A stretch of 64,000 nt of DNA, taken from the NCBI RefSeq assembly GCF_009834535.1, contig NC_045696.1:51400001-51464000 (forward strand). The letters are read 5' to 3'. Every line of letters begins with the position of its first letter. Position 1 is the first letter of the stretch. The notes beneath the pieces were generated by a model. That model was given only the letters and a program-made list of their open reading frames with translations, ran no database searches and was not told the origin of the DNA. The position numbers and the translations under genes are program-made. The DNA is from Camelus ferus. Lineage: Eukaryota. Shown one piece after another: positions 22,485 through 62,529 of this stretch.

Positions 22485-25400
22485 CTACGTTGCAAAGGAC
22501 AAGAAAAACTGGGTAAGGGGTTTGCTTACTCCCTCTGTTGTAACATAAAAATGAGTCACAGCTGTCTCCTTTGTGGCAGCCACTATGCTGGAAGTTTTAA
22601 TACCCTTTTAATTTTCACACCAACTCTATGAAGTAGGTGTGATTAGTAACTTTTTTTTTTGGATGAGAAAACTACTTGCTAACGTCTTTGACTCTTCCCA
22701 GGCCTTTGCTCCTAAATCAATTTTCTAGTTTGATCTCTAGATAGTTCTTTACTAGTTTTTTTCTACTTCTCAATTCAATTCAAATATTTATTTAATGTCT
22801 GTCCGTACATGACATAAGCCTAGGCGCTCACGGGATAGAGAAGCAGACCTTAAAGGCACAATTGACACAGTTAGGTCTGCTGAGATTAACATAGGGGCTC
22901 CCTAGATGTGAGAAGTCCCTGAGATAGGAGAAGTTTGCAGCTCTTCAGTGACAATGAGCAGTGACAATGAAAGTCAGTGAACTGCCTTCACTAACTCCAT
23001 GGTACCTGTGACCTTCCAATTTTTTGTTTCTTTATTTAAATAAAGTTGGTATTTTTCTACTATAAAAACTAGCACTGATTTTATACATTATGGAAAACTT
23101 GGTAAATGTGGAAAAATAGAGAAAAGCAAAATAATCACCCACCACCCAAAGACAATCAATCACTTTGACATCTTAGTGAATTAATTTTCAGTCTTTTTTC
23201 CTCTGTATTTAAAATAATCTCGATGTTATAATGCCATATGACAGTAGTTTTTTGTACTCTCTGTTTTTTCACTTTATATTTGAAAATAGGTAAGCATTTA
23301 GTAAATATCCAATATGTGCCAGACACTTCTATTGAATCATTATTTATTGTTTGATTTATTCATTATAATTCCAAGTGATACACAAAATCTACAGCTCAAT
23401 TAGGTGATATGTTTGGTTTCATAAATTTCAGTTTAGGTCTTTTGAATTTCCATCAGAGTTAACATTTACACACAAACTCCTTTCATTTATATTATAAACA
23501 TTTATCATTAAGTACAATCATTGGATTTCCAATTTCTGTCAAAAATGGTTACCTTAGTATCCTCTGCCAGCTCCACTAAACTCAGTCTAACCCATCAAAA
23601 TCCAACCCATCCCAACTTCACCTGACTCAAACTCACCGAGTACGATGACCAGCATCTGGGTGGCCTTCTTCTCCCGAAGTGGCATTCCCCGAGGTTGTAA
23701 GGGCCCCAGCTTCAGGGATGTCGACAACCTGCCGTTACTGAGTTTTCGAACCTCTAAGCTGAGCTTGGGTGCCATGGTGGGGCTGAGGGAGTTCCGAGTC
23801 CTCCCCTCCCTTTTCAACTCTCCTTCCCCTTCTTGGAAGCCTGGTCTTCCCAAGGCAGTATCTTGGCAGATGCTGTAGTAACGTTTCAGCTCCATGTGTG
23901 TCCTGCCAGGGGAGAGGGGCTGCAGGTGTAACAAGAGAGAGTCCTGACATTTCTGGGGATATTGTTTGTCTTCTGACTGTTCCTGAAAGGGAAACAGAAT
24001 ACAAAGAAGGAAGAAAAAAACATCATTGTGTGAAACCTACCGACAGTACATCTGAGAGTGGTGGGCTCGTGGGAAGTTAAGGTGAAAAAAATCTGCTTCT
24101 GTCTTTACAGCTAAAAAGTGTCTACCACATATAGAACATTTGAGAATCACAACAATCCCTTGGGGAGGGTAGCACAGAATTATAGCCTGGCCTTTTTGAT
24201 TTGGAATGACCTGGGTAGACGGAGGAACATATTAAATGACACCCCTGGGATATAAACAGAAAAATCTGAATGTGGAAAACTACAAAACAAATTACTCAGC
24301 TTCTTCAACAAGTGAGTTGCAATGACAACACCACCACCATTTACCAGGTGCAAAGGGTGGGTCCTTTTTAAATTTGGTTCAAATAAACCAACTATAAAAA
24401 ATTTACAAGACAATTGGGGAAATCTGAACATTGGATATTCAGTGATACTAGGGAATTGTAATATTTTTGTGTGTGTGTGTGATATCTTGTGGTTAAGTGT
24501 TTTTATAAAAGAGCCTATATTCTTTAGAGGGTTTTACAGAAATATTTTTGGCTGAAATGTTATGTTTGAGATCTGCTTTATAACAATCCAATAGGGGTGT
24601 GTGACATAGGTGGGAGTGTCAGTTGAAGTAAGATGGGCCATGAGTTGACAATTGCTGAAGCTGGCTGATGGCTATTGAAGGATTAGTTATATTTATCTTT
24701 CTATTTTTTTATTTTTGAAATTTTCAATAATAAAAAATATAAAAAAGTAGGATTTTGGTCTCAGCTTCCTACTTAGTGGACACATCCTTGGGGAAGTTTA
24801 ATTAACTTTCAATTAACAGAGACATTTAATTAATGTCCCTGAGCCTCATTTGTAAAACAAAAAAGAAATGAAAATAAGTGGATTGGGATGAGTAGACTGA
24901 GAGTAGAAACTGAAGACATGCGGCTGTTTCCGGTGTTTTGGGAGGATGCATGTGTGCTCAGCCTCTGAACTTCATCCCGTGTTTGAAGAGTCAGATGCTG
25001 TGTCAATCTTGGGTAGAAGGTAGGATTCCCCAGCACCCTTACTGAAGCCATAAAAGCCAGATACTCGCTCTCCGCGACCTCCCCATCGGGCAGCTAGAAC
25101 TCTGGTACATGAACCAAGCCCAGCCAGTCGGAGACTTGCACCTACGACCATGAACTGGAGCACAGGAAGCAGGGAGACTTCAGAATTCACTGAGCAGTGG
25201 TGACAGTCAGTGTCCAGCGTCCCAGGTATTCTACGCAGAGTCTTCCCTGGGTGTGAACAGAATCTTGTGAAGCTGTCCTTCAGCCTTCTCACTGAGTCTG
25301 AGCGCCTTGATATCCTCCCAGTAAATTCCCTTTTTGCATAAGTTAGTCAGTGTCAGCAACCAAAACCCTCATTAGTCTCTCTTTAGTTCAAGGAACCATA

Positions 25401-28400
25401 GTTTTCCACTTACAGAGGGCCAAGTACACAGTACACACTCAGAAATATTGCTGAATAAATGAATGAATAAATGAATGCAAGTGGCCTTCAAGATGATTTA
25501 ATGTTTTAAAAACTGCTCCACAGAGGTATTTGTAGGGATTTTATCATAACATTTTTTTTTAAATTTGTTTTTCGTTTTGATGGGATTTTCTAATAACTAA
25601 TATAAGTATATTGTGTCTTACCTGAATGACCATTGTAACCAAGATTATATTTATGATTGAGCTGGTGTCTAGTGATCTTCTAAAAGTGACAATATTTAAC
25701 TTCAAATGCATTATATCTGAAACTAAAGGACTGGGGACACAGTTCTGAGAGTACTTAGGAAATCTCAGGTTTGAGAACTCTGATCTAGTACAGCTTGTCC
25801 CCATTTCTCAGATTTGGAAATTCATTCCTATAGAAGGAAAGTGATTCTTTCAAAACTGTGTATTAGTGAGTGTATTTTTCGGCTCTCTCTGCAAACTTTT
25901 ATCACGACCTCCATGACTGACATGAAAAACACTGGGTTCCTTTGGATCTGGCTGGCGGAGCCCTCCACTCCCAGATGGCAGGACAGAACCTAATTCTCCA
26001 CACACCGGGCAGTGCCAGCTTCTTGGTTCTCTAATCTCATTGTGGTCACCACTCTTCCTTCTTTTGTCCTTGGAGCCTTCTCAGAACTTGAATTTGCCAT
26101 AGGCAACTTTAAAGCTATTATCCATTAAAAAAAATCATTTACAGCAGGAATCTGTAACTGCTACATGAGGCCTGTGTAAGAGTGGTTAATTAATTATACA
26201 GAGATTAGACAAGGCTCAGACCTTCATCATTATGGGCTTTTGAAGTTTCATTCCTAATATTTACTTGGCTGTGGTGTTCAGGGAGAAGAATACTGGTCTT
26301 TTATTTAACACCTTCAGGCCCCACTCCACACATGGCTTGCTTGGGGAGGCAGGGCTGGCTTGAATTGGAAGAACAAGAGTCACAGATCATGAAATTGTCT
26401 TGGCTTTTCCCACACTTAGTGGCAAATAGGCACTTAAAAGTCTCCCATTAACCTCCCTTGGCTCTGCGCATACCTGTTACCATGATGCGCTCCCTGTTCC
26501 CTCTAATGCAGGTGGTTCTGGGTGGTATCTTTATAACACATACATCCAAGAGTCATTGGCTCCAATCATCGGGATCCAGCCAATAGTCATGTGCTTTCTG
26601 AATATCATTAGATAGTTCCTATTCTGAAGCTCAAATCAGATAGGATCTCAGATCTGTTGTTTAGTATAGATACAACTGTGGGACTGGGGATAGATTCCAT
26701 TTGAGGGTAGAAGTGAAATCAAGTCAAGCCAATGTCTTGAGAAAAGATCTCTTAATCTTTTCCTACAATCAGAGGTATGGCTTACTTACCATTTTCCCTG
26801 TGGCATCTGATGGAAATCTGGCCCTTATTGAAAACTGCCGAATGGGGTGCAGCCGCAGACAGGAGGACTAGGGTGGGTTGAATGGGAAACAGTTGTGGGT
26901 TAAGCTCTACGTAGTTGGGTCATTCAGATGACAATGCTTTGAATACAATATATTCATATCCTCAGCTTTGGGTCCTGACCTCCTGTTTCAGGGGGACCAA
27001 TATTCTTATTCTACACAAGCCTTGGGATTTGAGTTTAAGACACTGACTCTGACTCAAGTCATCATAGGTTGATCAAGACATCCAATTTGGACCTGCCTTC
27101 AAGATCAAACTCAGTTTTTACTCTGTCTATGAAGCCCTTGAACATATTGACTTCTATTATCTCATAACCTCACCAGAATTTAATATTTAGCTGCTTAATT
27201 GTCTTCATCTCACATTTGGCAAACATCCCATTCAGTTTTAGGCTGCTCATTAACCTTGGCTGGAGGTGTGTTTTATTTGTTTGTCTAGGATTCCAAGCTG
27301 TATAATATTCCTTCTGTTTCTTTCCTAGCAAATTTCAAGTGATTGGCAATCATCCATTCATGCTTCAAGTACATCTTAAAGTGTTTGCCAGGCACGGGAA
27401 TAAGCAGAATTTACAACCCAAGCAATTGGAAGATTTCCACGACCTTCCTTTTCAGAGTCTCGAAAGATCTAATAAAATCTGTCATCAGCACCCCATCCCA
27501 CCAGCTGGTTAGGGTTTTGGCACAGAGGCAGAGTAAGGAAAAGAAGTTTCAGTGGATACCCAGTGATTCTTGATATGAATGGTCTGGCCAAAAAGCCATT
27601 TCTGGGAACCCACCAGCAGTGAATGGTAAAGCTGCCGCACTAAAACTTCATACCTGTGTGACATCTGAACTGCGGGCCATTTGGGGGCCATGGAAGACTT
27701 TGGAGGGAAGTAGAACAAGCCCAGAAACTATCCTATCAATTTACCAAGTAAAGTGTGCTCTAGGCAAGACTATCAACGCACTTTTGAGATTGGATTTCCT
27801 ACTTCTAAAGCACAGCCAATGCCTGCAGATTAAAAGGTGGGTGTCAAACGTGTGTCCCCAGTGTAGCAGTACAGGCAAGGACATGCACTGCTGGACACAA
27901 GTCGGGGAGGCCTGGGGCTGGGTGCTGTCTTCCTTCCTGCCCCTCCAGGGTGCTTACCTGCTGGGGGAAGCCAGGCCTGACACTGAGGCACTGACTGTTC
28001 TGTCGAGTGAGGATCCGTTTCCGTCTCCTCTGTCTCAACACCACATAGATCCTGGCATAGACGAGGACAGTCACTCCAAAGGGCAAGTAGAAGGACACCA
28101 CTGACGAGTAGAGGACAAAGTCGGGGTTGGAGATGGAGCAGACGCTGGGGTCCCCTGTGAGTGAGAGAAGGGGAGAAAGCAAAGCCGTCGGCCAAGTAGG
28201 GACCTCAGCAGGGAGCACAAAACATGGCGTCTCCACCACCTAATCTACATGGAGCATTGAGAAGCACTGGGGGCCGGTCCCATCTACCCCATCTTCATGT
28301 CCCAGGTTATGTGCTGCCTCCTCCATGGAGGCTTCCTTGCTTGAGTTTCTCAGTCAGAAGCAACTCTCACTTCCTTTATGTCCCACAGCCCTTTACTTTT

Positions 28401-29276
28401 GCCACTTTTGTGTGTTTAAGTTGTGAGGGTGGGGGTAGGGGACAGTCTCAGACACCTACAATGTCAACTTGCTGAGGATACGAGGTCTCATTCATCATTG
28501 TGCAGCTCACAGGTCACTTAAAAAGAAAATTTACCAGTGATTATATGCCAGACACTGCTCTACACTGGGGCTGCAAAGATGAATAAGATATGGTGTCCGC
28601 CCTTGAAGGAGCTCACGGTCTAGACAGACAGATGATCCCTTCCGCATACTGTGCTAAGTGTCACAGAGGAACGTGGCCTGGGGCGCTGGGTGGAGGGCCA
28701 CAGAGCAGCTGACCAGAGGCTCCCTGGAGGGCTGGAGCTCCCAGTAAAGGGCCTGCTGGTGTGGAGGCATCAAAGGATGGGTGAATGCAATGAAAGAAAG
28801 GAGAAAGACTTCTTTGCTGAGAATGCCAGGTCTCCAATTGTGAATCCCAATTGTGGGGCAGGTGGTGGCTGAATGTAGGCAATTCTATTTTTCAGAGAAT
28901 CCCAGTTATGCTCAGGAGTGCGATGGGAAAAGAGCCAGTGAACATATTGTCATCGTGGACAATGTGAATTGAGTTGTGTCCTTGTCCTTGCTTTATGTCC
29001 TGAAATGCTCCTGCCACTCTTCCTGAGGAGGTCCCTGGAGCCTTTTCTTCTGAACTCTATATTTTACACACTAACTACTACTTTAAAAAAAAACAGGAGC
29101 AAAAGTAGGTATAGCATGCTTCCATCTGTGTAAAAATCGACACACACACACACACACACACTCACAGGTGTGCTGCATGAGTGTGTGTATGTACTTGTTT
29201 CAAGTGTTATCTTTTAAGAATATTGGTGTTTACTTTTAGGGAGGGAGACAGGGGAACTGGTAATCTACATGTAAGG

Positions 29277-29308
<32 letters not shown>

Positions 29309-32300
29309 CTCATTACACCTTATGTTTTATCATGTGCCAGTATTTATTTTTCCATTAAAAATATTGAAAGCATATGTCTGAAAAACGGAAAGTGAAGAGA
29401 GAACACAGAGCTATTTTGGGATCGCTGATCAAAGGAAGGCCCTCGATATACAATCACTGAACCCGCGCTGTCATCCCTTCCTTCCTCCCCTACATAAAAA
29501 ACTGCTGCTTGTCCTTAGACTGAGTTTTGCAGCCTCTCCTGTGCATCCCATGAGGCTTGTCAGTAGGCGGAGTGACACTGGGCAGTGAGTGGGGCCCTGC
29601 CCCAACCTTCAGTGACCTGGCCTGGCCTGGGTGTGTGTCCTGCGGGCAGGGCAGAGTGAAGCACCACACATGGCAATTCTGAAAGCTTCTCTCTGCTGAT
29701 TCCCCAGGGAAGTGGCAAGGGCAGTGAGGCACCCAGGAGCTATGCTTCTCCAGGAGATGAGGTACCTGGTCCTAATTATTTAACTGAAACAGCACAGTGC
29801 TGTCAGCACCATGGTCATTGAATGAATATATGAAAGATGAATAAATGAGCCAAGTGTACAGATGAGCATTTAGTTAAGCAGTCACTAGCTGATAATGGGG
29901 AAGGCCGGTAGGGGGACTCCCCATTCTCTGAGATTGGGATGTTTGTCCCAGTGAATCACAGCAGTTAAGGAGGAAAAAATGATGACGAGGACCCATCCAC
30001 GTACTCATTCAACACACGCTTACAGAGTACCTGCTGTATTCCAGGCACTGTGCTGGGTGGTAAAACACCAAATATCTTTTGTGGGCTAGCCTAGGAACTC
30101 AGGTCCTGCAGTGACGTGAACGGCAAGGCCACAAGCAAGTTAACTTGAGAGATTCATGAACTTCTGGCTCTTTGAAGGATTTGTCCTCAACTTGTTTCCA
30201 AGATAGGAGATCCTGATGAATTTGATTTTACAATAAGCCTTTTAACTTTGTGCTTCTCAACCAAGCCCCACCACACCCAGCTCCAGTGTTCTGAAAGCCA
30301 GGTGAGGCGTTCTGTTGCTAAAATCTAAAAAGCCATCCTCTGTTTCCTTGTTTCCAAGGAAAATTAAGGCAGTTGATAAGACTTTAAGTTTTCCTGTCCT
30401 TGAAAGTTTCTTAAACCCTCGTCACCAGCTATTGCTTATCCATTCTGGAATTTTTAATAACACAATAGCTACCTGATTTAGCAGAAATTTTTATTTTTAA
30501 ATTTTTTTATTGAAGTATAGTCAGTTACAATGTGTCAATTTCTGGTGTACAGCAGAATGTTTCAGTCATGCATATACATACATATATTTGTTTTCATATT
30601 CTTTTTTATTGTAGGTATTGAATATGGTTCCCTGAGCTATACAGAAAAACACTGTTTTATATCTATTTTACATATAGTAGTTAGTATCTGCAAATCTCGA
30701 ACTCTCAATTTATCCCTTCCTACCTCCTTTCCCCCAGTAACCATGTTTGTTTACTATGTCTGTGAGTCTGATTTAGCAGAAATTTAAATACTAGTTATTT
30801 TTCTTATCTGTGAAATGAAAGGGTCAGTGACCTTTAGGGTTTCCTCTAGTATTACCACTCCATCCTCCGCTGCCATGAGGGGCTCTTGATGTGATATTTG
30901 GCTCCTGATGGCTGGGCCTCTGCTGGGAGTGGGGGCAACACGGGTCAGCCAGACCCCAAGGCCTTGGAACTCTCTGTGACCCAAGATCCTGCCTTCTGTG
31001 TGTGCGCCCAGAAAGGCATGTCACTCTTTTCTTAGACAATAAGAGTGATTCCAAGTTGGAAGAAACTGAAGTTCAACTTTGCTCTGCCTCATGCGCTCTG
31101 ACAATTCACAATCCCCCTGGCAGCCCATTTCATAAAGAGAAGAGCTATGCCAGGAAGTTCTGTTTTGTGTCGCACTTAGTGAACATCCAGCCACTGGTGT
31201 TGTTGGCAGAATCCTGCCCTTTCCTCCTCTACTTTTCATGAAGGGAGTAGGAAAAAAATGGCTGAGAGAAGTCATTTATATTGGGCTTTCGAATGAAGTA
31301 GGGAACTTCCTTACAGATGCAAGAGGTGCTCGAGGAATCCACATCCATCAAGATAATGAAGCTATGCTGTGAAGGTCGGACTGAGGCAGAGCAGGACTGG
31401 GCTCACGAGTCCTGCTCGCAAATTCCCTGAACTGCATTCTGGGGTGGGACTACCAGGCTCCTTTCTGACCACCAGCAGAGCTACCACTGTTTAGATTGTC
31501 CTTGGAGCAGGGGCATAGTTAAATGTGGAGGCAGAGGAACCTTTTCTTATACATAATAATAACAACAATAACACTAGCTAATATCTATCGGGTTTTTTAC
31601 AATGGACCTGACACTTTAACACAGTATATGAATAAGTGGAGAGCTTAATCTAGTTAGTGCCTCTAAAAGTACTGGATTTGCAGATACTAACTACTATGCA
31701 TAAAATAGATAAACAACAAGGTCCTACTGTATAGCATAGGGGACTATATTCAATAACTTGTAATAACCTATAATGGAAAAGAATATGAAAAGGAATACAT
31801 ATATGTATATATGTATAACTAAATCACTGCTATGCACCAAAAATGAACACAACATTGTAAATCAACTATAATTCAATAAAAATTTTTTAATTAAAAAATA
31901 AATAAATAAATAAAAGTAAAGGAGAGAGAGATGAGAGAGAAGTGAGCCTGTATGTGCTAAGTCACAAGCCTTTTTTGCCTTCTCAATTCTATTTGAAAAT
32001 TCTTTTGGAAAGATTTTTCTGAATTTTGTTTCTGGAACAATGATCTCACTGGTGGCAACAACACTGCAAGTAGTTCATCATTCTCCTTCACTTTATATGT
32101 TGACATTAACTGGGAACCCTGTCTAACGTCAGATTTTGAGACTAAATGTTACCAGCATGTGTGTATGTCTGTGTCTGTGAGCATGAGTAAGGCCACCCCC
32201 GTCAGCCTCCAAGAATGAGTAAGAGGAATCACACAGCCCAGTGAACGTTGGTGGGGGTTTGCTGCTGGCCGGGGTGAGGACTGCCTCAGTCTATCAGTGG

Positions 32301-35300: not shown

Positions 35301-36789
35301 GGACTAATCCCATTCATGAGAGTGGAGCCCTAATCACCACCCATAGGTCCCATCTCCTACTCCCATCACACTGGGGGTTAGGATTTTGAGGGGACACAAA
35401 ATTCAGCCTACAGCACAGGCCTTTACCTGGTCAAAGCATGGTTCCTTATTCTTATTGGATCTTGTCTTTTCTGTGGTATCTCCTCACATACATTTCCAGC
35501 TGCTTACTGGACTTACCTGAACAACTGTTCCATGGTTGTCTCAAACTGAAATTGTCTGAAACAGATGTAATTCCTTACATCTCTAAATCTGACTTTACTT
35601 CCTGCCTTTCTTCAAGACATCCACATCCAATACTTAGGCTTTTTTACTTTTCTTTGGCCCTTCCATGTCATTTGATCACCCATTCCTTTAACCTTTCATT
35701 CATTCAGTATTTATTGACTTCTTACTATACATCAGGCTCTGTTCTGGAAATATAGAGATGTGCAAATGGGACATTGCCTCTGTCCTTATCGAGCTTGGAG
35801 CTGAGTGGAGTGGAGGGAAAAACATGTTAATATAAAATGAAGAGTATTATGAAAGAAATAAGCTGGGTGGCATGTTTAAGGATAAGGGAGGCCGTAAGAA
35901 GGAGCAAAGCAACATAAGTGGATAGAGGAATGAGTGAGGCCAGAAGGCGCCAGCCATGAGTTAAGGCAGAAGAGCATTTTGGACAGAAGGATAGCAGGTC
36001 CTGTGAATGTGCCCATTATGGTGTCTTCCCCATTTATCCCTGCATTTCTTTTCTACCACCGTTCTCTATGATGGCCACAGCCCCCTGGCTGGTCTCCTGC
36101 AGCCAGATCCCAAAATAGATTTCATTATTCCCCTCCCTTACCCCGTGGCCCCCCAGTTGAAAACGGAGACGGGCAGGATTCTAAGATGGCCTCCCAAATT
36201 TATGCCCTGTAGAGCTAGAGGAACTCTGTGGTTAGATCACATAGCAGTAGATGGAGTTCATCAAAAAGGAGATTATCAGCAACCGAAACATCCATCAACA
36301 GAAAGATGTGGTACAAATATACACAATGGAATACTACCCACCGTAAAAAAGAATGAAATAGTGCCACTTGTAGCAACATAGATGGACCTAGAGATTATCA
36401 TACTAAATAAAGTAAGTCAGACAGAGAAAGACAAATACCATATAATACCACTTAAACATAGAATCTAAAAAATGATACAAATGAACTAATTTACAAAACA
36501 GAAATAGACTCACAGACATAGAAAACAAACTTATGGGTAACAAAGGGGAAAGGAGGGGAGGGATAAATTGGGAGTTTGGGATTAGTGGATAGAAACTACT
36601 ATATATAAAACAGATAAACAACAAGATCTTACTGTACAGCACAGGGAACTATATTCAGTATCTTATAATAACCTAAAATAAAAAAGAATATGAAAACGAA
36701 TATATATGTATAACTGAAATACTCTGCTGTACATCGGTAACTAATGCAACATTGTAAAATGAACTATATATCCAAAACAACAACAACAA

Positions 36790-36822
<33 letters not shown>

Positions 36823-51800: not shown

Positions 51801-54800
51801 ATTTTGTTCATTGCTTAAGTCAATCGGAGTCAAGTTTTCTTTTACTTACAACTAAAATTGTCTTAACTGAGATATTTATAGATCGTACTTTTTAGTTATC
51901 AAAGCACTTTTTCAACTGATGACAGTTGAGCTTAAATCAACCCTGAGATAGGGAAAATGTAGTTGTCACACTCATTTTATTCATTTAATTCCATGCCTTC
52001 TGACTCCCAGTTCTGAGTCTTTCTCATAGCATGACCCTGCTATCAGAATAACATTCATCCCAGTGAATTCCAGCAGAAGCACAATGTTATGTGACATTTT
52101 ATTGTCTACCTCACCCTCGTATCTTCTTTTTTAATAAAACCCACCCTTTCGCTTTTTCTTTTCTGTCCTCCCTCATAGCTTAAAGTGGCCTTATGTTCCC
52201 GTTCTGGCCAGTTAAACTTAAATGAGGTCCCTTAGGGAGATGTTTCAAGCCAGCTCCAGGGAAAGGAATCTTTTTTTCTTTCTCTGCTGTTCCTGCCCAT
52301 CCTAGTTTTGAATAACTGCCATGATGCTGGGGGCTCTTGTGAGAAGCATGAGGAAGGGAACCAGTTTACCAAGGATGGTGAACAGGAAGAATGGGAGAGT
52401 CTGGTCCTTGATGACATCTGAGACAGCGGAACCAACACCAGCAGAACTTCCTCCAGAATTTTTGTGGTTATGTGAGAAAAGTAACTCCTATTTGTTTAAG
52501 CCACGGTGAGTCAGATTTTCCAATATTTACAGCCAAAACCTAGTTAACTCATATATACTGGTGTCTGGCATGATGAGCCATTTTTCCTTTGAAGAAAGAT
52601 GTCTGGCCAATGTGAGCTGGTATTCCTTTCAAACAAGATGGATATATTCAAGTCAAAGCACAGGAAGGTGTGAATTTGGCAGCTAATTTCCCTCCTTCGT
52701 GGTGTTCTTCTCATTTGTCTTTCCTCCTGGGGGCCCTCAAGCCTGTAGCAGTCTCTGTGGTCAACACCGCACCCTTTCCTCTTTTCAGGGGGGCCTTCGG
52801 GTATGATCATGTAATTACTAGACCTGCTACTCAAACCGCACCATCATTAGGACAAGTTAGTGAGAGTAACACTTTGCTCTTCTCCGAGACACAGAAATTT
52901 ATATATTCACAATCCCTTTGAGAGATTAAAGTGCTCTTTTTTCTCATTAAAGCACCCAGTCTGCTTCTGGGGTCTGCAGAAAGCAGGCAGGCATTTAAGA
53001 TTAAGGAAAATATGTAGACTGGGGTGGATGGGGGACCTGGTCCTTTGGAACAGAACCTTCTGTTATCTTGGCTAGCTGTCTGCTGATGATGGCTACTTAA
53101 CGTCATGCTCTAGTTGAGACAGACCCTTAGTTGACTGTTGGGGAAAGTGATGCAGAGATATTAAGTTGCATTTCCTGGAGCCTTGAGGCAAGCGGGATAG
53201 GACCAAAAAGATGTCCCAAAGCCTTTTTCCCAGGGGAGAGATGCCTCTGCTCCCTCAAATCTTTTTTGTATAATTGCAGACTTATGTGACCATACTCTTG
53301 ATTATTGAACACCTACCTGTTATAAATCACCTGTTGGACAGAGGTCATATTCGTTTTTATGAGGGGAAACAAGAGCTCCCCCAGAGCTCTTCTCACAGGG
53401 GGAAACCCACAGGTAGAACCCGTAGAGAGAGAGTCCACTTCACTAAGACCAGATTTCATGCTGGTCCTCTGCAGACTCAGGTGCTCTTCTGTGCTCATTA
53501 GTAGAGTGGGGCACCATCCATATTGGCAGGTGTGGCTCGAAAGGGATGCCATGGGAGTCTAGTGTGGGAAAGTCACTATGTCCGTCTCCTATTCCCGTAT
53601 CTGCAGATGTTTTCCAATGTGGTCCATCCAGGTCCCTGGAAGCAATCACAGGTGGACAGCCAAAGAGTGCCCCAAGTGGCTTTGTTACAGGCACCAAAAA
53701 CCTGGCTTTATTTCAGAGGCAATTAAAATGCTTATCAGAATAAAGGTCCTCTTCCTGCACTTCTTTCTGATATTCATCTTCCTGGAAGACTTAAGAATTC
53801 TTGTAGTATATAGGGATGGACAGGAATACTTTTGAGGGAGGTATGGTGATGTTGTGAATCATGGACTCATCCATCCCTACTGGGCTGTAGCACCTAAAAT
53901 CTGCCTCACTCTTGAACAGAAATATCATTTGCCTCTAACTCCTTTTCAGTGTCATTCTTAAAAGATAAAATAAAAGTAAATAGTTCATTGTAACAATAAA
54001 CGTAGCTGCAGATGAGAGAAGCAAGAGTTGCCCATCTAATGCATACACTGCAGAACAGATTCATTTACTCATTCATATATCAAGTATTTATTTGGCACAT
54101 ATTATGTGCCAGGTAGTGTGTTTGGACTACAGGAAAAAAAAAAAAAGAACAAAGACATAGCTTCTGGCTTCAAGGATGTCTCAGCCTAAGTGGGTTGACA
54201 GAAAAGTGAAGGTAATTACGAGACCCTTTGCTATCAGGATTATCCTAACTGGGAAAAATAAATGCATATTTTTTCCTCCAAAGTATTCCCTTGGCCTTTA
54301 GATCCATCCCAGTCAGCCTAGTTGTTTTTATTCTTTTCCTTTTCTTTTCTATCTTCTTGATTTCTTTCCTTTCTGTCTCCCCATTGAGATCATAAGTCTA
54401 ATTTTAGTTCCCAGTCATTCTTTAACGCGGGTACTCGCCTAAGCAGTCTATGTTCAAGGTTTTTGCTCTCCTGTGATATGTCATACTTAATTAACTGTCA
54501 TCTTTACTATTAATATTAACTGAGATATTAATTTGATGAATTTTAATTTCTCTTAATCATAGCATCATTTTGAGCCTTCATTGGATACCTCTTTAGAATG
54601 ATACACAGTGCAGAGGAGAAATATTAATAGTATGTTAAGGTGTTTTAAAAAAAAACCTCTTTAGTAATTGCGTGTTTTCCTGGTAGGAATATCTGTTCTT
54701 GAACAGGTGCAGGCATCTCGATTTCCTTGTTAGCAAGTGGATGTTTTGTCTTGATCACCTCCTGACTCTGTTTTGCACTTTCAAATGAAAATACTTTCAA

Positions 54801-55743
54801 ATTTAGGAAATGTTTCTCTCCAGAAGAATTCTCCAGGGTCTGCTGCATTATCTAACTGGTGAGGGCTCTGTACTATTAATGGAGGCATCAAAAATATAAA
54901 TTTGGTCTGTTCCTTTGGAAGCAGAATCTGTGGAGTGCTGGTACCCAGGAGGAAAATGCCGAGTCTGAGGGCAACTGAACCATCAGAAGAGGTCTGATCT
55001 ATTTGCAGACTGTTCTTTCTCTCTTTTCCTCTCATTAATTTTTTTTTTTTAATAATTGCTTTTGCCCCTGCGTGCCTCCTGCACATCCTCACCCCTGTAT
55101 ACATTGAAACACTGATGAAGATGGCCACTGGACTGCCTTCCCCAACCCCCCATGTCTTTGCGACATGAGTGGCACAGAAAGTAAACCTGGTGCATTTTTA
55201 GGAAGAGTCCCATCGCTCAAGTCCAGTCACCCAGATGCTGGAGGCCCAGGAACGGAATCATTCCCATCTCCCTGGTTTTGATGTGGTTAAGTGATAAAGG
55301 ATATTGGCTGCTCTCAAGACCTTCAGTTCCCTCATGAAAGGGAGAATGACAGGAGCTCTCCTGCCTCAGACTCTGATCATGGCTGGGAGAATTCTGAGCC
55401 CAGAAGGATAGGAGTTCAGGGAAGACAAAGACAAGCACGACATGTGGGCATCTTGCACTCGCAGCCTACTCACCTCCAGGTACACCACCCAGGGCATCAC
55501 CAAGGTGGCCACCAGCAGGTCTGCCACGGCCAGGCTCACCACCAGGTAGTTGGTGGTGGTCTGCAGGGCCCGTTCCCTCAGCACGGCCACACACACCAGA
55601 CCATTGCCGAAGACGATGGCCAGGATGAGCGCGCAGTAGGAGAGGGCATAGTAGGCGTGTGGGCGGGCCCGGCTGGCCCCTGTGGCGTTCTCTGCCGCAC
55701 AGGTGGAGTTGATGTGGCCACCCAGCTGGCTCAGAGATGCCAT
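22288..55743 (-). CDS. DRD3: Dopamine receptor D3 (class A GPCR), multi-exon CDS: join(55743-55474, 45440-45328, 34533-34391, 28154-27958, [26867-26790], 23982 or 23919-23637, 22484-22288); 400 aa short form, 447 aa long form
   Basis: The spliced translation runs [22 protein letters not shown]...[19 protein letters not shown]...[21 protein letters not shown]...[11 protein letters not shown]...[12 protein letters not shown]...[22 protein letters not shown]. It contains DRY, CWxP, NPxxY, Asp3.32 and the TM5 serines. All junctions are GT-AG and phase-compatible; 1203 nt = 400 aa + stop. Confidence 0.99.
23637..23982 (-). CDS. DRD3: DRD3 ICL3-TM6 exon with two in-frame acceptors: 23982 (346 nt, adds [21 protein letters not shown]) and 23919 (283 nt, human-type)
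   Basis: Acceptors ccctttcag|GAA and cacctgcag|CCC lie 63 nt apart; donor G|GTGAGT. Encodes ...[15 protein letters not shown]...[14 protein letters not shown]. Confidence 0.95.
24200..24748 (+). mobile_element. Old L1 3' end (L1MC/MD-like)
   Basis: gacaattggggaaatctgaac...gagatctgcttta..caatcc...ttgacaattgctgaagctgg...ttttcaataataaaaa. Confidence 0.7.
26790..26867 (-). CDS. DRD3: DRD3 78-nt ICL3 cassette exon ([26 protein letters not shown]), rodent long-form type
   Basis: Acceptor cccaccctag|TCC, consensus donor ATG|GTAAGT, phase 0/0, no stop. The peptide is near-identical to the recalled rat D3 segment [26 protein letters not shown]. Too short to appear in the ORF track. Confidence 0.9.
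27958..28154 (-). CDS. DRD3: DRD3 coding exon 4 (197 nt, ECL2-TM5-ICL3 start)
   Basis: Encodes [65 protein letters not shown]; acceptor ctcacag|GG, donor CAG|GTAAGC. Confidence 0.98.
29141..29161. repeat. (CA)n microsatellite; a (TA)n tract lies nearby at about 29287-29308
   Basis: Read directly. Confidence 0.9.
30491..30767 (-). mobile_element. 5'-truncated L1 3' end with 18-bp TSD
   Basis: TSD ctgatttagcagaaattt at 30473-30490 and 30768-30785; same family as 7170-7465. Confidence 0.85.
31672..31912 (+). mobile_element. 5'-truncated L1 3' end
   Basis: atagataaacaacaaggtcctactgtatagca...acattgtaaatcaactata, then an (AAAT)n tail; flanked by taaaagta. Confidence 0.85.
32953..33093 (-). mobile_element. 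tRNA-derived SINE, camelid Vic-1-like, with 13-bp TSD
   Basis: Minus strand reads GGGGAGGGTATAGCTCGGTGGTAGAG...GGGTTCGATCCCCAGTACCTCCA (A and B boxes), then an A-rich tail. TSD aaacatgtaattt at 32940-32952 and 33094-33106. Confidence 0.88.
34391..34533 (-). CDS. DRD3: DRD3 coding exon 3 (143 nt, ICL2-TM4)
   Basis: Encodes [47 protein letters not shown]; acceptor tttctag|G, donor G|GTAACA. Confidence 0.98.
35070..35415 (-). mobile_element. MLT1A-type MaLR LTR
   Basis: tgtcttagtcagttcaggctgctat..caaaataccatagactgggtggcttaaacaac ... attcagcctacagca. Confidence 0.85.
36165..37268 (+). mobile_element. MLT1 LTR interrupted by an L1 3' fragment (about 36278-36826) with a poly(A)/(GAAAA)n tail
   Basis: MLT1 text (ctaagatggcctcc ... 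gggtgggcttgacctaatca ... gttacacagcaacagaa) is split by L1 text (gatggacctagagattatcatacta). TSD is approximately aaaggagattatc on both sides. Confidence 0.8.
39400..39960. promoter_or_regulatory. Intronic CpG island with GC/GT boxes and a CTCF-like motif (39489-39506)
   Basis: High GC and CpG density (gccgcgtgcg, gcgcgtgcattgcgcgccg). TGGCCACCGGAGGGCAC has one mismatch to the CTCF core CCASYAGRKGGCRS. Confidence 0.7.
45328..45440 (-). CDS. DRD3: DRD3 coding exon 2 (113 nt, ECL1-TM3: [38 protein letters not shown])
   Basis: Manual translation; acceptor cccag|GTG, donor AG|GTAGGG. Confidence 0.98.
45678..45845. mobile_element. MER5-like hAT MITE
   Basis: cagcgtttctccaagtgtggtcc...gacctactgag...tctctg...aatcttcattttta. 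Confidence 0.65.
49565..50005. mobile_element. hAT-Charlie-like DNA transposon remnant, next to MER5-like pieces (49370-49510, 50285-50510)
   Basis: Terminal-like ccagattaagaactcctg with an AT-rich Charlie-type body. Confidence 0.5.
50121..50143. repeat. (CT)n microsatellite
   Basis: Read directly. Confidence 0.9.
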
Positions 55744-55778
55744 GGCCTCGAGGGAGAGGAGCAACCCCAACACGTTTC
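55474..55778 (-). CDS. DRD3: DRD3 first coding exon (35 nt of 5'UTR, then ATG at 55743 and 270 coding nt: N-terminus, TM1, TM2)
   Basis: Acceptor ctcctcccag|GAAACG, Kozak gccATGG, donor GAG|GTGAGT. ORF track 55366..55773. Confidence 0.98.
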
Positions 55779-55854
55779 CTGGGAGGAGATGGAGAACAGT
55801 GTCGGTAAAGTCAGACCTTTTGAGTTTGGCTGCTTGGATACGTTTTAGAATTTA

Positions 55855-56390
55855 TCGCTTCAACAAATATTTTATTGAGCACTTTTAATATGCCGGGCAA
55901 TATTCTAAGCACTGGATATACAGCAATGAAAAAAGCGATAAAAATCCCTGCCCTCATTAAGCCTCCATTCTAGAGAAGAAGACAGTAATAAACAAGATGA
56001 AAAAAAGATGTAGTTTATTCGATGATGATATGTGTTTTGGAGAACAATAAATTAGGGAAGGGAGTGAGGACAGGGTGAAGATGGTGTGTGTGTGAGTAGG
56101 GTGTCTGAGTGCAGTTCTTAACTGCGGTTATCAGGAAGCCCTCAGGGAGATGGTGACAACTGAGTCAGGACCTGGAGGACCTGAGGGAGCCGTCTGTGCA
56201 GATATCCAAGCAGGAGGAACAGCAGGTCCAAAGGCAGGGCAGCTGGCATGTGGAGAGCACAGCAGGGAGGCCAGTGTGGCTGGAGCCAGGCGAGGCAGGG
56301 GCAGAGGGGAAGGATGTGAGGTCGAGAGGTTGCACAGGGCCGCTGGAAGAACCATGCATGGACTCTGAGTGAGATGGGGAGTTGCTGCAG
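55855..56390 (-). mobile_element. L2 LINE 3' fragment
   Basis: caacaaatattttattgagcac...aaaatccctgccctca...ggaacagcag...gaggccagtgtggctggagc. Confidence 0.8.
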
Positions 56391-57088
56391 GATGGGAAGC
56401 CCAGCTCTGCCGCTTCCTAGCTCTGGGGCCTTGGGCATGTTACTCCACCTGTCTGAGCTTCATTTTACTTCTCTGTAAAATGGGGGAAGTAATGGGACTC
56501 ATCGCATAGGGATTTTGTAAAGATTAAATGAGCTATTATGTATGTAAGACATTGACAGATGTAGAAAGCTATGTGAGCATTAGCTCTTTTTCTCTTTTTG
56601 GTCTGTTTCTCTTAGCTTCCCATCCCTCTTTCCTTGTTTCCTCTCTCCCACCCTCTGTTGCCCCCATTTGCCTTTTCCCCTGCCTCTCTCTGTCTCTCTT
56701 CACTTCCTTCAATCTCCCACTTTCTCTTTTGGATCTTACGAGGTAGGACATGGTGGGTTTGGGAGACTGGGTTGTGGGAGAAAATCTCGAGAGTAATGGG
56801 GGTTAGAGGTAGCTCAGTGGTTTTTATATTTAGGGGAAAATCCACGTGTGATATTTTATTTGAAACATCCTAATTTTTAAAGATTCCTTACCAGTTTAAA
56901 AAATCTTTAAGCCTATGAAGTCTCCCATCTCTCCCCCAAATTCCACATCCATGGCCAATGACCCATGCATCACCAGGTTTTAACCTCTGACCTAGTCCAA
57001 TGCCCTCATTTTTCAAACAGGGAAACTAGACCCAGAGAGGTGAGTGACACACCTTAAGTCATACAGCTTCTTATGGGCAGAACCAGCA

Positions 57089-57229
57089 TGCAGGGCCTGT
57101 TCCCTCAGCACGGCCACAGACACCAGACTATTGCCAAAGATGATGGCCAGGATGAGCACGCAGTAGGAGAGGGCATAGTAGGCATGCAGGTGGTGGCCCG
57201 GCTGGCCCTGTGGAGTTCTCTGCTGCACA
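57089..57229 (-). pseudogene. Decayed partial duplicate of the DRD3 first coding exon (about codons 15-60, N-terminus and TM1)
   Basis: Aligns by eye to 55562-55701 with about 12 substitutions and 2 small indels. Retains [32 protein letters not shown]. Neither the DRD3 start codon nor its splice sites were copied. Confidence 0.95.
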
Positions 57230-59299
57230 ATGCTCTGCTTTGGCATCTGACAGCCATAGCAACTGTCATGCCACTATTGCAATGGGAAAAGCCAATCCGC
57301 CAACTGTGAGGACTTTGGACGCAGAGTGGGAAAGGCATCAGAGCCCATCAGCTGCCCCAAGACATGAGCCTGTTGGGGCCAGAAGGGGCCCTGGGCTCTT
57401 AAACTTAGGTTTGTGTGTGTCTGTGGGGGACAAAAGTGACCATGTCCTGAAGAAAAATAAAGAAATACCTGTGTGCCAAGGGTAGGAGTGCATCAAAGCC
57501 ATGCTTGGGGAAGCACAGGCTTATCGCCCATGGTGTGGCTCTGAGACCTGGGTAAGAGTGACTCCTGCCCCGGGCTCTGTGCTTCCGAGGACCCTACTCT
57601 GGACCCCATCTGGTTGTACCCTCCCCCCAGGATGAGGTCATGCCCTCCCATGGCACCAAGGAGCAGATCCACCAAAAGTCCACACCCATCCTAGACCACA
57701 CTCTGAGTACCATGATCACAGGATTCTCTGTCCAAACTCCTTGGAGCCTATTTCTAGGGTGACATGGGCTTTGTTTTAGATCTGTTGCCTCAAGGGTAGA
57801 CTGTGCCAATATGTGTGGGACCCCAGGGTTCAAGGCGTAGCTCATGGAGGAGCTCAGATGAATAGCTTGGATGTATCCTGAGGTGGAGGGTGAAGAGGAC
57901 AAAGTCCCTGAGATGGAGTCCCTGAGGGCTTCTTCTGCCCTCTCACATTTTGTGTGCAACTCTTGAAGGGCCTAGGAATCCTGAATTCAAACCTGGCCTT
58001 CCAGATTATTAAGAAGGTACCTTTATCAAGACAGGAGGATTAAATATCTCATTCAATGGTCTGTTGGTTATAACTAAAATATGTAGACACGGAGTATATG
58101 GGCCTCCATGGGAACTCTTGCTCCAGGCCCCTGGCAGAGGTAGAGGCTGGCTTGGTGGCCAGGATTTGCTCTCAGTTCTACTAACTGCAGCTCTCCTTTG
58201 ATTAGGAGATTGGCTTAATCGTGGCTGTCATTTTATACCTCATTTTGAATGTTTCAGCCTGGAATGTGAACCTGTTAAAATGAGCAAATAATTGTAAGGG
58301 GCGAGTGACTTGGAATGAATTCAGAGAATTGTTAAAAAAAATTGTTCTTTATCTTGGCACACTGTTTGCACTCAATATATTTTAAAGCATAATAATAATT
58401 TTTGATAATAATTATAATTTTCTCATTATTTGGAGAAGGGCAGCCACTACCCCAGAGATAGCACTGTTGCTGCCAAGAGCTTTCGGAAAAATGCGATGCT
58501 TTCTGATTGTTCAAGGATATTTTCACCTTTGAGGCAGGCTCAGTCCCAGAATGCCTTTCCCTCTGCAACTGGGCCACCTTGGAAAGCAGTGGCCAGAAAT
58601 CACTCTTTCCTGGGATCTGCAGTTGGCTAATGATGTCGTAGCCTCATCTCACCTGTCAGGTAGGAGGGAAGCATAAAACCTCAGGATATTTGTTACCATC
58701 TTGCTGGACATTTTACTCTGCTGAGGTTTGACAGCTACTTAAAAATAGTACAGCTGAGTGTCAATGACTAATTGTATGAAGGGAACCCCTCAGCTCTGAA
58801 AATCAATTCTGAGCCTGTTGTTGGAATTACACTCTCATGAATTTCTGATTGACTTATTTTTTGCATTGCATGGTCTCTGGTCTTAGATTCTTTATCATGG
58901 CAGGTGGGGGTTAAGCCTTGGTTGTCCAGGCAGTTCCTGATGCGTTGTGGGTGTGGGAGATGAAAGCAGAAAATGAGAGAGATGCTAGATTACTCTCTAC
59001 TCCTACTTCTCAGCTAATTATTTCAACTTCCTCCCTCCTTAGATCTATTTTTTTTTTAAACCGGCATTGGTTATATAACAAAGAACTGGGCTAGGTTTTC
59101 TCTTTTCTTTCTCCTTTTGATAGATATGCTAACAGAACTCAGGCAGGAGAAGTAAAGAGCCTAGAGAATGCATTCACTTAATAATCACTCCTTAAGTATT
59201 TCATGATAGCCTGGCTTCCTCATCATAAAATGAGGATAATCATATCCACTCTATAGGGTTATTGTGGCAGTTAAATAAAATTATATATGTAAATACTTG

Positions 59300-59493
59300 G
59301 CACTATTGACAGCCACGGCTGGATAGTTCTTTGCTGTGGGGGGCTGGCCTGTGCTTTGCAGGATATTTAGCACATCACTCACTGGATGCCAGTAGCGCTC
59401 CCCTTCTCCCAAATTGTGACAATAAAAAATGTCTCCAGACACCATCAAATGTTCCCTGTGGGCCAACATTGCTCTTCCCGTTGAGAATCATGG
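59300..59493. mobile_element. MER20 hAT DNA transposon
   Basis: ggctggatagttctttgctgtgggggg...gatgccagtagc...tgtgacaataaaaaatgtctccagac...gttgagaatca. Confidence 0.85.
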
Positions 59494-62409
59494 CTCAAAC
59501 AGAATGTCTGGCACAGAGCACTTGAAATGTAGCTTTTATTGTTAAAGGGCAAGTGGGGATAGGTGAAGGGGTCAAATAAACTACAACTGCAGACTGTCTA
59601 ATGGACTTGAAAATTAAAAGATTACTGATGACCTTGGCAAAGAGCATTAGTGAAGAGTGGGTGAGAGGTGAGAAAGTGGAGAAACTAAAGACTAGAAGAT
59701 TACTGCTGGTCTTACTCTTTTAAGAATCATTACATAGAACATTACTGACAAATTTTCATGAACCTTTGAGTTTCTTACAAAGTATTGACTTATCTTGGTC
59801 TTTACAGTTTATTCTAGCATCTCTTAAACTGAGTGCATGATCTAATAAAAAGCAGAGGGACAGAGTGTGGTCAGGCCCCCATCCTCTGTGACACACATCC
59901 TGCTTTGCTGATACTCAGTCCCTTGGTGTGGACCTAGAGTCTGCCTGGAACAGCTGTGAGTTGCCTTGTTTGGGCTTCTGGTTCCGTTTCAGGCTCCCAC
60001 TGAGTTTGTTGGGAAGATATTCATTATGACTTACAGGGTTTTAATTATTTGTTCTCTTTCCTTAAGGAAATTGAGTTAAGCCAAAAAAACAAACAAGAAA
60101 AACAAAAACACCTTGGGTTCTTCAAACTCCTTTTGAAGACACTAGTCACTCCCACTCCTGGCACTAATACTTTACAGACGTTACCTTGGGTTAATGTTTA
60201 TAGTAACTCTGAAGGTGGTTATTGATATCTTTCTTTTACAGATTAAAAAACTAAGACAGAAGGTCTGTAACTTTCCCAAGATTACACAGTATGCAGGGAG
60301 CTACATTGAGCCCAGCTTTGGTCTTGTGGCTCCCTAAATCCAAAGCTTGGGACTTATTTATTGTGTCTATGCTGGGGGTGGAAGTTGAGGTGGGCAGTCA
60401 TTTCTAGATAGAAATGATTTCTCCTAAACCCAGAACAAAACACCTTGATAGCAGAGTTGCAAGACCAGTTAGCTATATCATAGATCCCTGTCTTTTGCCT
60501 GTCTCTAGCTTTTCACTCAGTTATATCCTGACCTCTAGTCTCCAGAGCTTTTCTGGCTCTGGGCTTCAGTGCAGACTTGCTGTATTGCCTGAAAAAAATG
60601 GATGATTATAGCTAACATTTAAAAGCATTATCTTATTTAAACCTCACAAAAACCTGATGAAGGAAATAGGTGCTATTATCCCCATTTTTGCAGATGAAGA
60701 AAATAAGAAAGGTTAAGTATCCTGCTGAGGTCATACACTAGTAATTATGAAAGTGATTCAACCCAAGATCTGTCTGTTTCCAGAGCTCCATGTTCTTCAC
60801 TTCTCCATTATTGGGGTGAGGGAAAGAAACTTGAAATGGGGACTAATTTTAAAACCTTGCTTTTTCAGAATATCTTGTGCATGTCACCTGACCAAGCTCA
60901 ATGAAGTCAATGCAGGTGCACACTGCACATAGAAACAGTGGGAGTTACATTGTCATTATTATTAGAGGTAGTCTTTAGCATTTCTATGTCACTTTATTCT
61001 TGAAAATTGCTGTCTAGTTTATTTTCTGAGTGAAAATTCACAAGTGCATTGAAATACACAGCATATTTATATATTTGGGCACATTTATATTGGGCCAATG
61101 TATAGAGAAAAATTAGAGATGGTTACTGAGATCCAGTAGCTAAGTAATATAGTTTTTTTTTCCCTTAATTAAACTTGCCCAATAAAGTGGAGCATCCCCA
61201 CTTTCCATCACAAATTCTAATATCTGATCATCCTACCATTCTATTCAGAGATAAAATGGGGAGCTCAGCAGATTAGTCAATCAATCAATAAGCAAATATT
61301 AATTGATAACAAACTTCAACACATTAGAAATTGAATTTAATATTGGGTAAAATCTGCTTGATGTTTTCTTTAATTCATATTCCATAAAAAGCAACCTTCT
61401 GTATAGATGCTTTAATATCAGACATTCATTTGGAAACTGCCAATATTTTTCTTGCTCAACACCCCTATACAGTGCTAGCCAAGCAGACCCTTGAAAATGT
61501 TCAAACTATAAATAAACAAGTGTCTAAGTAAGAATCTTTTTCATATTGTATCTGCTTCTCTTTGGCTACAAAGGATCCAATGTTGTGTCAAGCAGCGATT
61601 TTTCACTCTTACCCAAGTACAGACATTTTACTGACCTTTTAGTGTCAGTTAGCAAAGGGCTTCACCTGTAAAGTGCAAACAGGCATGCAGAATGAGTTTA
61701 GAATCCAAGTTGCACTTTGCTATTGCTGCATTATTACTGTGCATTCATTCTGATAGTATTTGATTAAGCTAAAGGCATGAACTGGAACAAATGCCTAATT
61801 GCAACAACTTCCATTGACCCAATAAGCTACATTAAGTAATGAAAGTCCCCCAATTAAACAACAGTACCTTCAAAATCATATGCCATCATTAAAGAAAATA
61901 TACACAATCATCATCTCAAGTACTGTATATCTCTGTTGGGAACAATTGGATTCTGACTTGGAAACAGCCTGACTTAAAATAGACCATGGAAAACAGTGCC
62001 TCTCCAAACCCTCAGCCCTGGATTACCAGGGTGCTGAATTGGGGAGTTTAAAATAAGAGACCCTTTCAATTAAGTAAAACCCTTAAGAGGAAAACAATCA
62101 ACTTTTTTACAAATCCCAGGAATAGAAACAGCTTTTTGATTTTCCACCTTTTAATTCTGCCTAAATATAGATTCTAGAGCCCATGAGGATCTAATTTTGG
62201 GGAAAAAAAGAGAAAGAGAACAGGTTTCTACTGACCAGAAAATAAGGAGAAAATGAACACAGTTTCCTTAGGGGTTCAGGTTTTTAAATAAGAGAGGGTT
62301 CAGAGTTTTAATGCGTATTCTTAGAGAACCACGGAACCCCAAGCTGATTAAATAACCTGTCAGAAAAACACTGTGTTTTAAATTAGAAACAGAAAGAGAA
62401 ATTACTTAC

Positions 62410-62529
62410 CCTGGAAATTTCTTCTGGTTTCTGGAGACCGTGGGGTTTAGCACCTCAGGTCCTGCAGCCATTTACTGACAGCAGACATACCCAAGCAAAG
62501 CAAACTTTACCTTTCCCAGGACACAGAAG
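62410..62529 (-). other. DRD3: DRD3 non-coding 5'UTR exon (120 nt if internal; may extend to about 62800 as a first exon)
   Basis: Donor CAGG|GTAAGT at 62410 and acceptor ttattttcacag| at 62529. The sequence tgcttgggtatgtctgctgtcagtaaatggctgcagg matches the human DRD3 mRNA leader as I recall it. Confidence 0.8.

Follow-up and report, generated by a model that had tools for sequence, protein, structure and literature searches.

The DRD3 locus

The window analyzed here is a 64,000-nucleotide (nt) stretch of Camelus ferus contig NC_045696.1 (positions 51,400,001 to 51,464,000). It contains the complete dopamine D3 receptor gene (DRD3) on its minus strand, and our subject is a second open reading frame (ORF) that runs out of frame from a start codon in the predicted leader exon across most of the receptor coding sequence (CDS). 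Candidate exons were read and joined by coordinates, which gave a spliced ORF of 400 amino acids (aa) with AG and GT flanking each coding-exon junction. Exon 2, the first coding exon, matched the human D(3) receptor chains of solved structures with an E value of 1.5e-48 and the D(2) chains with 3.7e-25, and exon 3, too, was closer to the D(3) than to the D(2) chains. By this match to D3 over D2 and by its complete ORF, the gene is the D(3) receptor gene.

All positions below are window coordinates on the minus strand unless stated otherwise. Exon 2 extends from 55778 to 55474, its acceptor following a pyrimidine tract 35 nt before the main ATG (55743-55741, context GCCATGG). Exon 3 (113 nt, 45440-45328) is followed by exon 4 (143 coding nt, 34533-34391) and exon 5 (197 coding nt, 28154-27958), both of which are open throughout in the +2 frame relative to the receptor. 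Exon 6 has two acceptors and spans 23919-23637 in its short version or 23982-23637 with 63 additional nt; it contains the stop codon of the alternative frame. The last exon, exon 7 (22484-22028), holds the receptor stop TGA at 22290-22288.

Longer splice forms are predicted as well. A candidate cassette exon of 78 nt (26867-26790) lies between AG and GTAAGT and contains no stop in either the receptor or the +2 frame, and the upstream acceptor of exon 6 adds the 63 nt at 23920-23982. With good splice signals and an uninterrupted receptor frame, the two additions predict a long isoform of 447 aa. The peptide that they would encode is probably similar to the long D3 isoform of rodents.

A degenerate partial copy of exon 2 lies within the leader intron at about 57088-57230, 1.4 kb upstream of exon 2 itself. 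It retains about 90% identity over about 140 nt and corresponds to receptor residues 25-63 at 69% aa identity; small indels break its frame, and its flanks are unrelated to exon 2.

The leader exon and its start codons

The leader exon is predicted to end at 62410, next to a donor GT at 62409-62408. The junction reads AGG/GTAAGT, a good rather than perfect consensus; the perfect donor CAGGTAAGT is absent at the leader. Two ATGs precede it, at the coordinates given in a preliminary description of this DNA. The first, uATG1 (62488-62486, context GGGTATGT, G at -3 and T at +4), opens a 13-codon upstream ORF (uORF1, 62488-62447) that stops with TAA at 62449-62447. The second, uATG2 (62471-62469, context TAAATGG, T at -3 and G at +4), is directly preceded by an in-frame TAA, lies 17 nt downstream of uATG1 and is spanned by uORF1. 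The start contexts thus differ: that of the main ATG is strong, uATG1 has a purine at -3, and uATG2 has a pyrimidine at -3 with G at +4. uATG2 stands 62 nt before the predicted donor and, after the predicted splice from 62410 to 55778, 97 nt before the main ATG, which is the distance described earlier. The spacing of 72 nt between the uORF1 stop and the main ATG (37 + 35 nt) was also stated correctly. The 62410-to-55778 junction is the sole predicted element of this otherwise observed arrangement.

Where the leader begins would determine which other start codons the mRNA carries. Four more upstream ATGs lie further 5' (62561, 62627, 62634 and 62652) and would be relevant if the leader extends that far. 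The one at 62561, in the strong context AAAATGG, opens a candidate 29-codon uORF0 (62561-62472) whose TAA at 62474-62472 abuts uATG2; uORF0 would be in the mRNA only if the leader started upstream of 62561. A candidate acceptor AG at 62531-62530, which follows a pyrimidine tract, would exclude uORF0 and the other upstream AUGs if used as the acceptor of the leader exon.

The strong acceptor of exon 2, only 35 nt before the ATG, means that some upstream exon must exist. This speaks against the alternative that nothing here is functional, with the leader exon lying outside the DRD3 mRNA or its AUGs hardly being used, and with the open +2 frame being a compositional accident that has no start of its own. 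Such an account can draw on the leader junction being a prediction, made from a donor that is good and not unique in kind, on the pyrimidine at -3 of uATG2, and on the short-form alternative frame having no Met apart from that of uATG2, so that it would have no AUG if the predicted leader were not used. The scarcity of DRD3 mRNA may also leave selection on a weak upstream AUG slight. It fits less well with human DRD3, for which OpenProt lists an ORF from the 5' untranslated region (UTR) whose length would suit an AUG likewise placed at -97, and for which a leader with a 36-codon uORF is on record, as far as it is described in PMC3738444. We regard this alternative as possible but doubtful.

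The overlapping frame

From uATG2, the +2 frame is open for 334 codons in the short splice form and ends with TAA at 23737-23735, which is made by the AGT/AAC codons of Ser302 and Asn303. This stop is located 906 nt into the CDS, for an overlap of about 900 nt, and precedes the last exon junction by 98 nt. It is the only +2 stop in the DRD3 CDS, compared with 17 stops in the +1 frame, and past it the +2 frame is open again to 22030-22028, in the 3'UTR. The spliced reading therefore confirmed the 334-codon frame, its single CDS stop and its openness on to 22028 as previously described, and the four entries of the program-made ORF list that had been assigned to the uATG2 frame were reproduced as pieces of it. 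Given the predicted junction, a leader AUG whose stop lies beyond the main AUG would make this an out-of-frame overlapping uORF.

The alternative frame would measure 355 codons with the 63-nt acceptor alone and 381 with the acceptor and the 78-nt cassette. The 381-aa long form of the preliminary description is thus a length that can be reached, although the 47 aa treated there as one cassette come from two events, the 78-nt exon at 26867-26790 and the 63-nt acceptor at 23982. The 334-residue product would be basic (isoelectric point 9.1), with an abundance of Leu, Gly, Pro, Arg and His and a single Met, its first residue. This composition is what reading a GC-rich gene off frame usually gives. 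Compared with Pfam, the four alternative-frame pieces matched no family at E values up to 0.1.

Human DRD3 and distant D3-like exons

The comparison across species was indirect and made use of OpenProt lengths, human protein residues, Ser9Gly typing and distant D2/D3-like exons. OpenProt 1.3, as tabulated for the alternative ORFs (altORFs) of genes encoding human G protein-coupled receptors (GPCRs) in Table S1 of the AltB2R paper (PMC7949122), lists one human DRD3 altORF from the 5'UTR, IP_107802, with a length of 135 aa. Its MS and TE scores, which cover proteomics and ribosome profiling, are both 0, and its orthologues per OpenProt are in chimpanzee (98.5%) and sheep (66.7%); two further human DRD3 altORFs lie in a 3'UTR (PMC7949122). 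An ORF of the uATG2 type has 32 codons upstream of the CDS, and its closure at Cys103/Asp104 would give 135 codons. In the window, this residue pair is encoded by TGC/GAT (exon 3, 45404-45399), one synonymous change (a third-base T) from TGA, and human D3 has the same pair. The arithmetic of lengths is suggestive of IP_107802 being the human counterpart of the uATG2 frame.

A second line of reasoning comes from the human Ser9Gly variant, an A/G change that is typed with MscI/BalI. The recognition site of this enzyme is TGGCCA. Human D3 residues taken from the matched D(3) chains read Ser8-Gly9-His10, so the site must be composed of T, GGC and CA, and human codon 8 must end in T. It follows that the +2 frame reads, across codons 8 and 9, TGG with Gly9 and TAG with Ser9. 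The same site is present in the window, where codons 8-10 (GGT GGC CAC) contain TGGCCA at 55720-55715. Since Ser9 made up 79% of the alleles in one sample, most human DRD3 mRNAs would close the +2 frame about 40 codons from a -97 AUG. Judged from titles and abstract openings, this switch between TAG and TGG is apparently unaddressed in the papers surveyed.

Scanning metagenomes with exon 2 returned 8 loci, 3 of which were D2/D3-like exons of distant species. On the metagenome contigs L041 and L043, whose first coding exons are D3-like, the +2 frame closes early, in L041 at 11 codons into the CDS. The D2-like contig L042 keeps it open, and a D2-like exon of the same genome as the window closes it early. 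A scan of genome contigs gave no match with exon 6 and one spurious bacterial match with exon 2. When the alternative-frame peptide of exon 2 was compared with a protein database, five ORFs in the same off-frame of D3-like exons were found (P0001-P0005); these show openness in some species and carry no denominator, since closed frames would not be called. As database entries, P0001-P0005 are spurious 'proteins' of 88-181 aa, off-frame calls from ENA and Logan contigs that a homology search could catch. DRD3 is absent from the main text of two surveys of conserved mammalian overlapping frames (PMC1868773, PMC2329644).

Conservation of the open frame across orthologues had been proposed as a check, and the comparison went against it. 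With a human altORF of only 135 aa, a TAG created by Ser9 and early closure in the distant D3-like exons L041 and L043, the long open frame appears not to be conserved. One could still suppose that the -97 AUG is common to human and to this mammal, making DRD3 mRNA a two-frame message whose second frame varies in length by lineage (334-381 codons here) and is set in human by Ser9Gly (135 codons with Gly9, about 40 with Ser9). The human variant could then also act through overlapping-frame translation or decay, and the long product here could be a young but real protein. We consider this extended proposal improbable. The part of it that holds by necessity, namely that human Ser9Gly toggles a stop codon (TAG/TGG) in the overlapping frame, provides a testable idea and is the most interesting spin-off of the analysis.

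Stop depletion under different null models

We asked how often a +2 frame as open as this one is obtained from the codons of DRD3. The CDS has T at 13.5% of third codon positions and a third-position GC content (GC3) of 74%. At 70 of its 400 codon pairs (about 1 in 6), the second codon starts with AA, AG or GA, so that the pair could close the +2 frame. The first residue has a T-ending synonym at 61 of these 70 pairs and uses it only once, while the share of T at other T-capable codons is 18.4%. Synonymous codon shuffling (20,000 times) predicted 7.1 stops where 1 is observed, with P(<=1) = 0.0024, and shuffling within codon boxes predicted 6.8 (P 0.0026, or about 0.003); for the 447-codon form, P was 0.0005-0.001 in these two shuffles and 0.0005-0.002 over all synonymous shuffles. 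The strictest null keeps the codon box, the amino acid and the first base of the next codon, and thereby the dinucleotides across codon boundaries. It predicted 3.96 stops, with P 0.047 for the short form and 0.037 for the long form. Across codon boundaries, T is followed by A in 6 of 105 cases and by G in 27 of 117, and this scarcity of T/A removes most of the potential TAA and TAG codons. The shuffle check suggested in the preliminary description thus found frames so stop-poor to be rare (P 0.002-0.003), and less rare once boundary dinucleotides are kept (0.04-0.05).

As controls we used 32 regions of the same genome that match DRD3 exon 2, taken in their long open frames and checked against the D3 protein. 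Five were dropped: L016 and L039 had no ORF of at least 280 aa, L018 and L022 had no DRD3 match, and L009 matched only residues 40-92. The 27 that were kept are aminergic-receptor ORFs, and the near-duplicates L028 and L031 were excluded from pooled counts, leaving 25 paralogues. Long +2 runs are found among the controls as well, with two ORFs open over 286 of 373 and 273 of 359 codons (about 76%), the same share as the 302 of 400 codons in DRD3. A context model trained on all 25 paralogues was discarded because it was miscalibrated for very GC3-rich genes (leave-one-out P down to 0.0002). In all, we take the open frame of DRD3 to be a genuine outlier of modest size, its P value ranging from 0.003 to 0.05 with the null chosen. 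At P 0.003, we estimate the number of genes in a genome that reach such depletion by chance to be on the order of a hundred.

Long ORFs off the receptor frame were encountered elsewhere in this material. The antisense strand of the first coding exon (55291-55848, plus strand) is open for 185 codons, more than either sense frame there, which indicates that long ORFs arise cheaply in this GC-rich exon. The dropped regions L018 and L022 (own genome, C16 and C2) have longest central ORFs of 309 and 643 aa with no BLASTP match to the D3 protein; these appear to lie off the receptor frame and to be further long off-frames in GC-rich receptor loci.

Interpretation

We favor, as the rather likely account, an ordinary inhibitory uORF that overlaps the receptor start out of frame and is partly shielded by uORF1, its exceptional length being a lineage-specific by-product and not a conserved second protein. 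In this account, splicing of the predicted leader to exon 2 would yield an mRNA with two closely spaced AUGs. A ribosome that starts at uATG2 would pass the receptor ATG out of frame and be lost for receptor synthesis, and it is this loss that would render the overlapping uORF inhibitory. Ribosomes that use uATG1 would instead translate through uATG2, and 72 nt past the uORF1 stop they may reinitiate at the main AUG with its strong context, while those leaking past uATG1 may be captured at uATG2, so that the logic would be one of leaky scanning. Translation of the uATG2 frame would terminate 98 nt before the last exon junction. Under the 50-55-nt rule, a stop at such a distance predicts nonsense-mediated decay of the mRNA. 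Three contributors may together account for the length of the frame: few codons ending in T, avoidance of T/A at codon boundaries, and a chance lack of T before Asp and Glu codons.

Several results weigh against this account. The stop depletion in synonymous shuffles (6.8-7.1 expected, 1 seen; P 0.002-0.003) is one. Among the controls, the lowest box-shuffle P was 0.031, which makes DRD3 (0.003) the most depleted of 28 genes. When the context model was trained on the 13 GC3-matched controls (GC3 0.65-0.85), it expected 7.15 stops for DRD3, with P 0.003 in the short form and 0.001 in the long form; the leave-one-out minimum among those 13 controls was 0.03. Moreover, T precedes none of the 19 GA-starting codons of DRD3 (hypergeometric P 0.004), and the paralogues show no general avoidance of this kind: in the 25 pooled, T stands before 150 of 657 GA codons (22.8%) and before 621 of 2796 codons starting with any G (22.2%). 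As for the agreement of lengths between IP_107802 and a uATG2-type ORF, a coincidence would not be rare, given that roughly one in six codon pairs is able to close the frame.

The same depletion is the main argument for true dual coding, in which a +2 protein of 334-381 residues would be made from uATG2 and serve a separate function in this lineage, as in XLalphas/ALEX or the A2A receptor and uORF5. Three nulls gave a depletion at P of about 0.003, which is stronger for the long form; this and the first rank of DRD3 among 28 aminergic GPCR genes of the genome both fit such a protein, as does an overlap of about 900 nt, beyond the 500-nt limit given by Chung et al. (PMC1868773) for chance human-mouse conserved alternative reading frames. 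What speaks against it is that the length is not conserved (135 aa in human, or 40 codons with Ser9), that the human MS and TE scores are zero, and that the product matches no Pfam domain and has the skewed composition expected when GC-rich DNA is read out of frame. The weak context of uATG2 behind another AUG, the decay predicted from the stop 98 nt before the last junction, the hundred or so genes per genome estimated to reach P 0.003 by chance, and the absence of DRD3 from the main text of both surveys all point the same way. We judge dual coding very improbable.

Selection might also have kept the frame open for reasons other than a protein, for example if a uORF that ends far downstream precludes reinitiation at internal receptor AUGs. 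This would explain the same stop depletion with no functional peptide, in keeping with the lack of domains. In human, however, closure of the frame after 40 or 135 codons has no known harmful effect, P is no lower than 0.04-0.05 under the strictest null, and the mechanism is undocumented for any GPCR in the literature surveyed here. Taking these points together, we find this explanation exceedingly unlikely.

Returning to the inhibitory uORF, the preliminary description had proposed a translational switch and possibly an alternative protein. Its geometry of ribosome fates was sound, in that a start at uATG2 cannot give receptor and that uORF1, which contains uATG2, terminates 72 nt short of the main ATG. 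The alternative protein found no support, given the 135-aa human ORF with MS 0 and TE 0, the Ser9 TAG, the early closure in distant exons and the missing Pfam match, and a second protein is unlikely. Its caveat, that a long open frame may be a by-product of scarce T-ending codons, is the likelier answer but needs a qualifier, since simple codon statistics predict a shorter frame, and one this open is rarer than the caveat implies (P about 0.003, and 0.04-0.05 with the strictest null). Use of uATG2, if it occurs, would set a ceiling on the yield per mRNA of D3, a scarce and drug-targeted receptor. The locus also provides a calibrated example of the off-frame ORF length that a GC3-rich GPCR can reach without being a gene, which is useful for judging altORF catalogues.

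Comparison with known systems

A regulatory role of the leader is plausible and would belong to a known class, that of overlapping uORFs in the leaders of GPCR genes, with the likely human counterpart already catalogued in OpenProt. Like the uATG2 ORF, IP_107802 starts in the DRD3 5'UTR and has a length that fits a -97 AUG and the +2 frame; unlike it, the human ORF has 135 aa in place of 334-381, and the proposed homology is one of length arithmetic. Another GPCR mRNA in which a 5'UTR AUG opens a second ORF is that of rat Adora2a, whose uORF5 is reportedly about 134 aa long, far shorter than the DRD3 alternative frame. As cited in PMC7949122 and PMC4705651, Adora2a uORF5 is translated into an alternative protein linked to receptor signalling (Lee et al. 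2014); by those citations it has experimental support, whereas the uATG2 ORF is predicted from sequence.

The frame -1 'matreshkas' of GPR27, GPR135 and KCNK12 are conserved in human, mouse and rat and mostly have no Met start (Ribrioux et al. 2008, PMC2329644). They share with DRD3 the frame relation, GC-rich receptor genes and a length of hundreds of codons, and by the measure that those authors also use, possible stop positions number 53-64 for GPR27 and GPR135 (PMC2329644) compared with 47 before the DRD3 alternative stop. The DRD3 alternative frame differs in possessing an AUG start and in a length that is not conserved in human.

The 36-codon uORF of human DRD3, with its -204 A>G Lys9Glu variant, is known to us as described in PMC3738444 (Sivagnanasundaram et al. 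2000). According to that description, the DRD3 leader has uORFs that are thought to reduce receptor translation, and by its reported position the human uORF ends upstream of the main ATG without overlapping the CDS. A clear counterpart of it was not found among the uORFs of the window. In leaders of the ATF4/GCN4 type, a short uORF comes before an inhibitory one overlapping the main AUG. The DRD3 leader resembles these in its short 5' uORF and in the out-of-frame uORF that covers the main start codon. In delayed reinitiation, the inhibitory uORF starts past the stop of the short one; in DRD3 its AUG lies inside uORF1, and reinitiating ribosomes would never meet uATG2. The shielding of the receptor start in DRD3 would accordingly be a matter of leaky scanning and not of delayed reinitiation.

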